NCBI GenBank assembly: GCA_031265685.1
Contig: JAISCI010000045.1
Span: forward strand, 15,467 to 79,466
Direction: 5' to 3'
Length of the DNA: 64,000 bases
Source of the DNA: Clostridiales bacterium
GTDB taxonomy: Bacteria > Bacillota > Clostridia > Lachnospirales > WRAX01
Position 1 is the stretch's first letter. The number at the start of each line of letters is the position of its first letter. The translations under genes were made by a program, and so were the position numbers. The notes beneath the pieces are model-generated. The model saw nothing but the letters and a program-made list of their open reading frames with translations. It was not told where the DNA came from and ran no database searches. This document shows positions 3,234-3,536 of this stretch, piece by piece.

Positions 3234-3536
3234 GAACCTGTATTCATTAGTGGAATCGGCGGATTTTCGCGATGATTTTTCGCCGGGCGAGGAAGCGGAA
3301 AACGCCGCGTACTCAGAGAGTACGCAAGTTCTTGGCTGACGACGAAGAAGATGGCTTGATGAATTTTGCGTGATGGAATTTCGCGTGGTCCGAAGCATTA
3401 TCGTGTGGTTCAAACGATAATGCGATGCAAAATTCATTCAAGCAAAATTCAGATGTTGTCTAAGACAACATCAAACGTCGATCAACGACGGGAAATCAGC
3501 CGAAAAGACGTCGATTCCATCTATCAATACAGGTTC
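3234..3536. mobile_element. MITE-like fold-back element, long copy (termini GAACCTGTATTCAT / ATTGATACAGGTTC)
   Basis: About 15-bp inverted termini; left and right arms pair (GTGGAATCGGCG with CGTCGATTCCAT, TGGCTGA with TCAGCC). It carries inserted modules shared exactly with 23012-23052 (41 nt) and 47071-47104 (34 nt, reverse complement). It lies between the rng stop (3537) and the guaB SD. Confidence 0.75.

Follow-up and report, generated by a model that had tools for sequence, protein, structure and literature searches.

Most descriptions of small palindromic repeats come from Proteobacteria and streptococci, and several of the known systems are close enough to the repeat reported here to be compared with it. 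Correia elements (CREE/NEMIS) of Neisseria, like MITEs, are non-coding and shorter than 500 bp, carry terminal inverted repeats (TIRs) and are flanked by a short A/T target duplication, which in Correia elements is TA. Both kinds of element are mostly intergenic, occur in long and short variants and form a stable hairpin in the transcript. In the case of Correia elements these transcripts are cut by RNase III (PMC10969869). BOX repeats of Streptococcus pneumoniae and S. suis consist of family-specific terminal modules around a variable number of shared internal modules; thus, two families of S. suis place either boxA/C or boxE/F as terminal modules around the same boxB modules (PMC3049150). 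REP, BIME and REPIN sequences are numerous small imperfect palindromes that are found singly or in tandem or inverted clusters, at stop codons and sometimes in ORFs (PMC3733652). Finally, the palindromic elements of Rickettsia (RPE) are tolerated in frame in protein-coding genes (PMC10969869).

The 64-kb stretch of DNA analysed here (the window) contains a long copy (A) and a short copy (B) of a repeat that resembles Correia elements and MITEs in being non-coding, shorter than 500 bp and mostly intergenic, in its TIRs, in having long and short variants and in its stable hairpin. However, it has no sequence similarity to Correia elements, its putative target duplication is apparently of 3 bp (TNA) and not TA, three copies of it were seen, and the difference in size between its copies is due to nested foreign palindromes rather than to internal deletion. 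The BOX-like arrangement of terminal and internal modules is likewise present, with at least five types of terminus, and the nesting matches that of the pneumococcal BOX, RUP and SPRITE repeats, for which insertion into each other and into or next to IS elements has been reported (PMC3049150). Then again, boxB modules form tandem direct arrays whereas the internal units here are mirrored, nested palindromes in a Clostridiales host of 61% G+C, and we would regard the repeat as resembling BOX in architecture only, not as a member of that family. The inner units, imperfect palindromes of 27-36 nt, are, like REPs, numerous and variously clustered and placed but differ from them in that they carry no conserved GTAG/CGTC tag and that the window holds no RAYT; the A/B element itself has long TIRs and flanking direct repeats, both of which are absent from REPs. 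It is also the inner units, and not the A/B element, that are comparable to RPEs, although the in-frame cases here number three, show no sequence relation to RPEs and come from a different phylum.

Two complete copies and a partial third

All coordinates are positions in the window and identity figures are between window loci unless stated otherwise. Copy A (3234-3536, 303 nt, GAACC...GGTTC) lies between rng (3537-4724, minus strand) and guaB (1738-3204, minus strand). Copy B (20821-20955, 135 nt) has the opposite orientation and is flanked by the gene for the B subunit of the V-type ATPase (atpB, 19237-20613, plus strand) and an LD-carboxypeptidase gene (ldcA, 21112-22014, plus strand). These limits, already given in a preliminary description of the locus, exactly bound GAACC...GGTTC, the 15-mer quoted there beginning one base outside. 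The left TIR of copy A, AGAACCTGTATTCAT (3233-3247, plus strand), and the right one, AGAACCTGTATTGAT (3523-3537, minus strand), differ by one mismatch and are hence complementary in 14 of 15 positions, as compared to 15 of 15 in copy B, in which the terminus is found at 20820-20834 (plus) and 20942-20956 (minus). When up to one mismatch was allowed, AGAACCTGTATTCAT was matched four times in the window, whereas 0.44 matches were expected from shuffles and none of 100 shuffles reached four. The inverted termini which the two copies had been said to have in common are of 14-15 nt and located only at the four predicted ends. The two copies also share about 60 nt of each arm, as had been noted, at 91-96% identity (arm 1, 3230-3296 versus the reverse complement of 20893-20959, 91% over 67 nt; arm 2, 3484-3537 versus the reverse complement of 20820-20873, 96% over 54 nt). 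The asymmetries between left and right arm are identical in A and B, which argues that they are copies of one master and not independently formed palindromes. Degenerate copies of a small hairpin half-unit, described below, were seen in the arms of this basic unit.

The proposed foldback of both copies was evident from z values of -7 to -10.6, with no shuffle being as stable: copy B folds at -50.2 kcal/mol (z = -7.0) and copy A at -122.7 and -135.5 kcal/mol on its two strands (z about -10). With 135 and 303 nt the element stays below 500 bp, and its coding capacity is restricted to short ORFs without homologues. In databases these ORFs matched only the 66-aa ORF of the window itself and a read-through that stems from a truncated transposase, and an HMMER search with the 83-aa ORF across B against 1.84 billion representatives retrieved nothing beyond the window's ORF itself and two spurious matches. 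In these features A and B fit the structure by which prokaryotic MITEs have been defined (PMC10969869).

A Pfam scan of the approximately 60 ORFs of the window confirmed that they include no transposase, and no HUH domain or RAYT either. Neither an autonomous element with these termini nor further copies of the element were found in GTDB representative genomes, JGI metagenome contigs, plasmids, phages and viral contigs, and no such autonomous element is present in the window; plasmids and phages gave no match by BLASTN in distant mode, and viral contigs none when scanned for the terminus and the hairpin unit. The exact pattern AGAACCTGTATTNATNNNTGNAATCG had a single match in the GTDB representative genomes, in a coding region of Anoxynatronum buryatiense, which was judged to be a chance match. 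The pattern AGAACCTGTATTNATNNNTGNAA matched 118 stretches of JGI metagenome contigs, all of which were dismissed as chance because BLAST of both copies matches nothing past the 20-23-nt pattern.

A search of predicted proteins with the six-frame translation of the element did, however, reveal a partial third copy (P0121/L125), while a second, larger query with six-frame peptides from other palindromic families yielded no matches. It occupies positions 758-836 of the 1.7-kb metagenome contig L125, with 97.5% identity to 3233-3311 of the window, and begins exactly where, at position 123 of the 314 of the model, an ORF for an ISAs1-family transposase loses homology. For movement of the element this junction is indirect evidence only. 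L125 lacks both the right end of the element and the remainder of the transposase gene, and the locus has either been rearranged or is a chimera of the assembly. ISAs1 was considered as the autonomous partner and rejected, since no GAACCTGTATTCAT-like terminus is found upstream of the transposase gene and the element cuts this gene instead of bounding it. The family seen thus comprises three copies, one of them partial, located at rng|guaB, at atpB|ldcA and inside the ISAs1 transposase ORF on the other contig.

Could the repeats or their junctions be chimeric joins? The source is a metagenome-assembled genome (MAG), short-read contigs break at all these repeats, and L125 itself is perhaps chimeric. 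We nevertheless consider such an artefact to be extremely improbable, since an independent short-read assembly (Logan, SRR14710922) reproduces, at 100% identity, rng together with 42 nt of the element, 26 nt of element sequence followed by spacer and guaB, and ldcA with the right end of B. That on both sides its contigs end within the element is how a repeat behaves. Moreover, the elements are internally coherent palindromes that are positioned precisely between intact genes.

Nested hairpins and the small palindromic unit

Copy A is composed of the backbone of the short copy and two inserts, of 29 nt and about 137 nt, each of which is made of self-contained hairpins. Insert 1 (3287-3315) is absent from B but present in the third copy, and provides the 5' half of GCGTACTC-aga-GAGTACGC, a hairpin at 3307-3325. 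This hairpin had been listed as an extra segment of the long copy, which holds for its 5' half only, the 3' half being already contained in B. Insert 2 (3350-3488, edges accurate to within a few nt) is absent from B too and starts with a nested palindrome of 98 nt (3354-3451), in which the half-units TGAATTTTGCGTGA and TGGAATTTCGCGTGG and their mirrored counterparts enclose the innermost hairpin GCATTATCGT...ACGATAATGC. This palindrome is 87% identical over 84 nt to 22985-23068, and its core is the block 3391-3431, which as previously reported is identical to 23012-23052 in 41 of 41 positions. It is followed by a hairpin module (3452-3485; GATGTTGTC-taa-GACAACATC plus AAACGTCGATCAA) whose reported identity to the reverse complement of 47071-47104 was also reproduced (34/34) and which sits in a longer match of 77 nt (78%) to 47050-47123. 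The exact blocks do not by themselves show recent copying or recombination, as had been proposed, because at an arm divergence of about 5% a mismatch-free run of 34-41 nt has a chance of 12-17% and is not significant alone. The idea of shuffled modules applies insofar as the palindromic units are common to other families, but A is the B backbone with units inserted inside. A clean target duplication around the insert of about 137 nt was sought in A: the junctions CGACGAAGAA and CGACGGGAA are suggestive but not cleanly reconcilable with the short copy. We infer that the long form would have arisen from the short one by secondary insertion of other small palindromic units circulating in the same genome, and not the short form by deletion. 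As every insert is itself a hairpin, the overall foldback of A would have been preserved.

Relatives of these inserts are found elsewhere in the window. The nested palindrome at 22955-23123 has four half-units per arm and the same innermost hairpin as the insert of A, and may be either source or sister of the 41-nt block. Another TIR element (ATACTGATTCCATTT...AAATGGAATCAGTAT, 47057-47243), located between a ylxF-like ORF and fliK, contains the 34-nt module as well as, in its centre, a small hairpin unit. The separate palindromic element P4 (TGTAAATGTCAACTGAAAAATC..., 20622-20770) lies 50 nt upstream of copy B, and a second member of it directly follows the partial third copy in L125. Altogether, at least four other palindromic families of the window share a hairpin unit of 27-36 nt (consensus GAAkTTTGCGTGAACCAmGCrAAmTTC), and the terminus types GAACCTGTATTCAT, ATACTGTTTC, ATACTGATTCC, TAATCC(C/T) and TGTAwwTG all surround GAAkTTTGC-type units. 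Half-unit cores number 26 in the window as compared to 4.1 expected, and alignment of 12 complete units shows that their stems are kept by compensatory changes, with 91.6% of cells paired, four pairs changed on both sides and none of 500 shuffles reaching an equal score. Across the flagellar operon the palindromic families occupy the space from stop codon to ribosome-binding site, and hairpin units are present in frame inside three genes (CheC, +~56 aa; FliP, +12 aa; TRAM-domain protein, +22 aa). The repeats of the flagellar operon were also seen to abut or overlap stop codons, some of them supplying the last codons of motB and fliI.

But is it the A/B element or the small hairpin unit that moves? 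In a REP/REPIN/BIME-like scenario the mobile entity would be the 27-36-nt unit, spread by a HUH tyrosine transposase that acts on single strands and recognises hairpins (RAYT or IS200/IS605-like) or generated by template switching at hairpins as the DNA is replicated, and A/B as well as the other families would be multilayer palindromes which result from repeated insertion of units into earlier loops, with the outer termini as the oldest layer. The covariation of the unit stems fits such a scenario, and so does the layering, in that left arms contain tandem half-units and right arms mirrored ones (2+2 in the insert of A, 4+4 at 22955-23123, about 6+5 in cheC). Degenerate half-units (GGATTTTCGCGAT, GATTTTTCGCCGG) are held by the A/B arms, the innermost hairpin combines a different stem with the same TGGTTCA loop, and both inserts of A form new hairpins together with pre-existing adjacent sequence. 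REPs, too, overlap stop codons and occur inside ORFs (PMC3733652). However, neither GTAG nor CGTC, the tags by which the two REP superfamilies are defined (PMC3733652), is conserved in the aligned units, and the window is devoid of a RAYT or HUH domain. Moreover, insertion of units into loops does not explain why the 14-nt termini are sharp and conserved, why the 3-nt direct repeats are copy-specific and why the ISAs1 ORF breaks exactly at the terminus. We therefore regard this scenario as unlikely, if still the most serious competitor of the one preferred below. A point against the reading preferred below is that the A/B arms consist of half-units found in the other palindromic families as well, so that the 'terminal inverted repeats' could be just the outer shell of a palindrome that some other process has produced.

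In a more unusual variant, which we consider doubtful, the small unit would be a self-nesting mobile palindrome whose preferred integration site is a hairpin loop, be it that of an existing copy or another one. The result would be 'Russian-doll' palindromes of 2 to 6 mirrored layers with covarying stems and a conserved TGAACCA/TGGTTCA loop, which would form the interior of several TIR element families and survive in frame in CheC, FliP and the TRAM-domain methyltransferase-like ORF. It would amount to a hairpin-loop-targeting system of Clostridia without REP tags that might need an undescribed enzyme or a replication-based mechanism, and A/B would be one of its products.

Flanking triplets, proposed insertion and transcript hairpins

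The A/T-rich flanks previously ascribed to both copies are apparent from direct reading of the sequence. Copy A is preceded by TTA (3231-3233), a putative target-site duplication, and followed by TTA (3537-3539), which on the minus strand is the TAA stop codon of rng. The triplets flanking copy B (TTA 20818-20820 and TTA 20956-20958) read TAA/TAA in the orientation of A. The 3-nt direct repeat thus matches within each of the two complete copies and differs between them (TTA/TTA in A, TAA/TAA in B), and the partial third copy has TGA at its sole preserved end. From the two complete copies, the flanking triplets look like a TNA target duplication; with T and A fixed by target preference, agreement of the middle base in these two copies has a chance of about 0.06-0.25. 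Homology among the three copies ends exactly at GAACC in three unrelated contexts. At an empty site or after precise excision the predicted join at rng|guaB or atpB|ldcA is ...GACAAAATA-TAA-AAAAATCCAGGG..., with a single TAA. Comparison with the closest RNase G homologues (52-55% identity, from genomes of 37-49% G+C) provided no definable empty site; in the relatives rng is followed by DUF5721 instead of guaB, and four related genomes contain none of these repeats. Gene order conserved in the four relatives was seen to stop exactly at copy A.

Taken together, we think it reasonably probable that A and B belong to a small family of MITE-type, non-autonomous TIR elements with nested palindromic insertions. 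The earlier suggestion of a MITE-like element is in keeping with its small size, lack of a credible ORF, 14-15-nt TIRs, A/T-rich sites, foldback and dispersed copies and with a window free of transposase, whereas transposition itself is presumed. The basic unit would be of about 135 nt, its arms being imperfectly complementary and both its ends carrying GAACCTGTATTCAT as a 14-nt inverted repeat. These termini would be recognised in trans by a transposase whose gene lies elsewhere in the genome, and the element would integrate at T-N-A and duplicate these 3 bp. Few triplets of the 61% G+C host genome are A/T-rich, and the stop codons TAA and TGA belong to them. An insertion at a stop codon would restore the stop and hence be tolerated, as may have happened in A, where the right-hand duplicate would be the TAA stop of rng.

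The target duplications of Harbinger elements are TWA, and some IS5 subgroups (IS1031, ISL2, IS427) produce duplications of 2-4 bp and have termini starting with GA or GG. Our best guess for the transposase would be a DDE enzyme of the IS5/PIF-Harbinger type, to which we presume a 3-bp TNA/TWA duplication to point. Canonical Harbinger elements, which are related to the bacterial IS5 family, duplicate 3 bp (PMC12730594). Because no transposase was found, the link to IS5/PIF-Harbinger, that is to Tourist-like MITEs, is a lead only.

Alternatively, the hairpins might be kept by the host as cis-acting RNA for intercistronic processing, stability or termination at rng-guaB and downstream of the V-ATPase operon, the sequence being shared via a common binding factor. 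A and B do have the same orientation relative to the surrounding transcription, in co-directional genes the palindromic elements lie exactly in the gap from the stop codon of one to the ribosome-binding site of the next, the V-ATPase leader begins with a strong promoter-like site that is followed by two small units, and Correia and ERIC repeats affect transcripts via RNase III and RNase E (PMC10969869). However, it is the non-transcribed strand of A and B that folds better, by 11-13 kcal/mol, and of 11 elements whose context is known only 4 have the more stable fold on the sense strand. The small units are found in both orientations relative to transcription, copies are present within coding regions and a transposase gene as well, and the four related genomes do without these repeats. 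Rfam gave no match at the gathering threshold in the whole window and, at a permissive E-value around the elements, only far sub-threshold matches to miRNA precursors that reflect generic hairpins. A guaB riboswitch or leader, an intrinsic terminator and a promoter inside the element were likewise rejected, as there was no Rfam match and no convincing promoter or terminator. A function as cis-acting RNA thus seems improbable to us. For an element of MITE type it is nonetheless possible that the hairpin affects the rng-guaB transcript, for instance by RNase III cleavage or altered stability as in Correia elements.

Implications for the host

The repeat is a non-coding, hairpin-forming sequence like the defective 'miniature transposons' that bacteria accumulate, and it is a new example of known selfish DNA rather than a new system. 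Current concepts are unchanged by it, the evidence being one 64-kb window and one 1.7-kb contig. What is new is the host, a deep-branching, uncultured, isolated high-G+C lineage of Clostridiales with a rich repertoire of small palindromic repeats, which are packed very densely in an essential flagellar operon. Insertion at TNA stop codons, together with a 3-bp duplication that restores the stop, would explain how such elements persist in the tight operons of a G+C-rich genome. The repeats fragment short-read assemblies of this organism and, as the gene order conserved in its four relatives ends at copy A, may mark points of rearrangement. Finally, the in-frame hairpin units parallel the palindromic elements of Rickettsia and could be used to study the tolerance of proteins towards repeat-encoded peptides.

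Termini, arms and flanks of the two copies

The long copy of the element (copy A, 3234-3536) lies between guaB (IMP dehydrogenase; 1738-3204, minus strand) and rng (RNase E/G family; 3537-4724, minus strand), the short copy (copy B, 20821-20955) between the genes for the V-type ATPase B subunit (19237-20613, plus strand) and an LD-carboxypeptidase (21112-22014, plus strand). Their orientation relative to local transcription is the same. The inverted termini ascribed to both copies in the preliminary description are borne out, as AGAACCTGTATTCAT, with up to three mismatches allowed, matches four times in the 64-kb window and only at the four predicted ends (copy A, 3233-3247 on the plus strand and, with one mismatch, 3523-3537 on the minus strand; copy B, 20820-20834 plus and 20942-20956 minus), as compared to 0.44 matches expected from shuffles, of which 0 of 100 reach four. 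The limits 3234-3536 and 20821-20955 given there delimit GAACC...GGTTC, but the quoted 15-mer starts one base outside them.

The arms were likewise correctly described as common to both copies (3230-3296 versus 20893-20959, 91% complementary over 67 nt; 3484-3537 versus 20820-20873, 96% over 54 nt), and they contain degenerate half-units, GGATTTTCGCGAT and GATTTTTCGCCGG, of a small palindromic hairpin unit. Left and right arms within one element are only ~78% complementary and yet the differences between them are identical in A and B, which argues that the two are copies of one master rather than independently formed palindromes. Both fold back on themselves, as had been claimed, copy B with -50.2 kcal/mol (z = -7.0) and copy A with -122.7 kcal/mol on the transcribed and -135.5 kcal/mol on the other strand (z ~ -10).

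When copy A is read GAACC...GGTTC it has TTA at either side, and the right-hand triplet, read on the minus strand, is the stop codon TAA of rng; copy B, oriented as A by its distinguishable arms, has TAA at either side. Since they are equal within each copy and different between copies, the flank triplets behave like a target-site duplication and unlike element-internal sequence. The statistical weight that two complete copies would lend to such a duplication is modest, as the probability that the middle bases agree in both is ~0.06-0.25 if T and A are set by target preference.

Build of the long copy and a partial third copy

Global alignment of copy A to the reverse complement of copy B shows that A consists of B and two inserts. 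The first of them, insert 1 (3287-3315, 29 nt), is present in A and not in B. From it comes the 5' half of a hairpin at 3307-3325, GCGTACTC-aga-GAGTACGC, and the 3' half is already there in B; the extra hairpin-forming segment previously noted in the long copy is new to A in its 5' half only. Insert 2 (~3350-3488) consists of a 98-nt palindrome (3354-3451) followed by a hairpin module (3452-3485). The palindrome is built from half-units TGAATTTTGCGTGA and TGGAATTTCGCGTGG, an innermost hairpin (GCATTATCGT-gtggttcaa-ACGATAATGC) and mirrored half-units, and matches 22985-23068 with 87% identity over 84 nt; there, the same innermost hairpin lies within four half-unit layers. The module occurs a second time just inside the left terminus of the inverted-repeat element 47057-47243. 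Both exact blocks reported earlier were found again, 3391-3431 being identical to 23012-23052 (41/41) and 3452-3485 to the reverse complement of 47071-47104 (34/34). Because each inserted piece is a self-contained hairpin, the overall foldback of A is preserved. The long copy does hold extra modules, but 'nested' describes them better than the original 'shuffled', as A is the B backbone with hairpin inserts.

A search with the six-frame translation of copy B against predicted proteins returned a single protein, P0121, of which the element encodes the C-terminal 26 residues. P0121 lies on L125, a 1,679-bp metagenome contig (JGI 3300042612, Ga0466705_410530) with a G+C content of 50% versus 61% in the window. 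Positions 758-836 of this contig are 97.5% identical to 3233-3311, insert 1 included, and insert 1 thus defines a subfamily comprising A and the L125 copy, B being the other form. The element cuts an ISAs1-family transposase ORF (L125 289-852) at its terminus: residues 39-157 of P0121 correspond to positions 1-123 of the 314 of the transposase model, and the element starts exactly where this homology ends (model position 123). The flank, TGA|GAACC, would fit a T-N-A target within AAT-GAG, two codons of the transposase gene. The element's right end and the remainder of the transposase gene are missing from the contig, and the second flank is therefore absent; a palindrome of another family, P4 (837-990), comes next and is followed by unrelated genes. 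The locus is either rearranged or a chimeric assembly. L125 shows that the sharp terminus of A and B recurs in a third, unrelated context and belongs to a sequence able to interrupt a gene.

In exact-pattern scans, the GTDB representative genomes contained a single match, in a coding region and judged to be due to chance, and none of the 118 stretches from pattern scans of JGI metagenome contigs extends past the 20-23-nt pattern; scans of viral contigs and BLASTN against plasmids and phages returned no match. The statement that the window holds no transposase stands, since a Pfam scan of ~60 ORFs (essentially all window genes) detected no transposase, integrase or HUH domain.

We favour, with reasonable though far from full confidence, a non-autonomous MITE-type element with 14-nt inverted termini, which would rely on mobilisation in trans, insert at TNA sites and duplicate 3 bp there, and whose long copy would have received other small palindromes as nested insertions. 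The MITE-like reading proposed before is supported in part, in that its structural hallmarks are found; mobility is putative. The 3-bp duplication may serve as a lead to a transposase of the IS5 / PIF-Harbinger type, itself not found. Harbinger elements have TWA target specificity, and some IS5 subgroups (IS1031, ISL2, IS427) produce duplications of 2-4 bp and have termini that begin with GA/GG. Duplications of 3 bp are made by canonical Harbinger elements, which are akin to the IS5 family (PMC12730594). In architecture, streptococcal BOX elements come closest: they are modular, with different terminal modules around the same internal ones, and are found inserted into each other and close to IS elements (PMC3049150).

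Hairpin units across families and within genes

The window contains at least four further palindromic families with different termini. Family F1 (ATACTGTTTC...GAAACAGTAT) comprises three long copies and a short one of 96 nt (1159-1298, 40501-40638, 53324-53473, 53800-53895), which differ by central hairpin units and each occupy a stop-codon-to-RBS gap, both orientations being represented. F2 (ATACTGATTCCATTT...AAATGGAATCAGTAT) is found at 47057-47243, F3 (TAATCC(C/T)...(R)GGATTA) at 42160-42324 and 48480-48606, and P4 (TGTAAATGTCAAC...; pattern TGTAwwTGTCAACTGAAAAATC...GATTTTAATTATA...AAATACA) at 20622-20770, 50 nt from B. P4 adjoins an A/B-family copy at both of its known sites, here and on L125. 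Its subterminal TGTATTTG/CAAATACAGG is similar to the A/B terminus.

Across families, long and short forms are separated by the small hairpin unit GAAkTTTGCGTGAACCAmGCrAAmTTC, whose half-core GCRAAMTTC occurs 26 times in the window versus 4.1 ± 2.2 expected. In twelve complete units, which are related sequences, 91.6% of cells are paired and four pairs are changed on both sides (0/500 shuffles as high); the stem is kept by compensatory changes, with the usual caveat on related sequences. But could the hairpin unit itself be the propagating entity, REP/REPIN-like or replication-generated, with the termini as an outer layer only? We regard this, the main rival of the favoured reading, as unlikely, as it leaves unexplained both the sharp termini and the copy-specific flank triplets, and as the GTAG/CGTC tag by which REP superfamilies are defined (PMC3733652) is missing from the aligned units.

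The units also lie within genes. An array of ~six half-units and five mirrored ones, ~15 nt each (30441-30606), is read in frame within cheC (ORF 30132-30920, minus strand). Compared with the solved structure of Thermotoga maritima CheC (1XKR), query residues 104-165 take the place of chain residues 99-104, and the extra ~56 residues sit in the linker joining the two half-domains. In fliP (37860-38657, minus strand) one 36-nt unit (38614-38651) encodes residues 3-14 (IRISPGSRGITL), immediately N-terminal to the hydrophobic core of the signal peptide. Two tandem 33-nt units (63198-63268) encode residues 6-27 (EAISREPSEILK/AISREPGEILI), in frame, of a TRAM-domain, methyltransferase-like ORF that runs on the plus strand from an ATG at 63186 beyond the window end; an overlapping minus-strand ORF (63128-63907) looks spurious. 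At 12694-12808, TTGCAA-17-TATAAT, a strong sigma-70-like promoter sequence, lies at the start of the leader of the V-type ATPase operon (first ORF V-ATPase G-like, from GTG 12852) and is followed immediately by two tandem units, which would form the leader's 5' end.

Genomic setting and possible effects of the repeats

Elements fill the stop-codon-to-ribosome-binding-site gaps between the co-directional flagellar genes fliM|fliY, motB|fliL, ylxF-like|fliK, fliI|fliJ, fliE|fliF and flgC-like|fliE, and in four elements the terminal base overlaps the upstream stop codon. The right arms of the F3 copies encode the last 4 codons and stop of motB (42160-42324; ...TNPD*) and the last 8 codons and stop of fliI (48480-48606; ...TNPILKDG*), the F3 terminus ACTAATCC being read in one common frame in both.

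The order radical SAM-DUF2344-rng-DUF5721 is found in each of four distant relatives of the host; in these four, none of the window's repeats was found and no empty site is definable. In the window the conserved order stops exactly at copy A (3' end of rng, 3537), where guaB-luxS follows. The copy A site is a possible repeat-associated rearrangement point. The annotation of the host reads 'MAG: Clostridiales bacterium' (protein MDR1209378.1), and as the best non-self homologue of its RNase G among 5.8 billion proteins is only 55% identical, its lineage is one without a sampled close relative.

The evidence is against a functional RNA: Rfam gave no match at the gathering threshold and only the sub-threshold miRNA-like matches that any long hairpin gives, no convincing promoter or terminator was found inside the elements, the non-transcribed strand of A and B is more stable by 11-13 kcal/mol, and small units point either way with respect to transcription. 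Of 11 elements whose context is known, only 4 have a sense strand that folds better than its complement. The elements may nevertheless influence transcripts incidentally; Correia elements, for one, are documented to be cleaved by RNase III (PMC10969869).

Contigs assembled from short reads of this organism (Logan, SRR14710922) stop 26-43 nt into repeats on every side examined, and assemblies of this genome are fragmented by these repeats. Most unusual about them is that palindromes are layered, that elements fit so closely to the stop codons of an essential operon, and that cheC, fliP and the TRAM-domain gene contain units read in frame.
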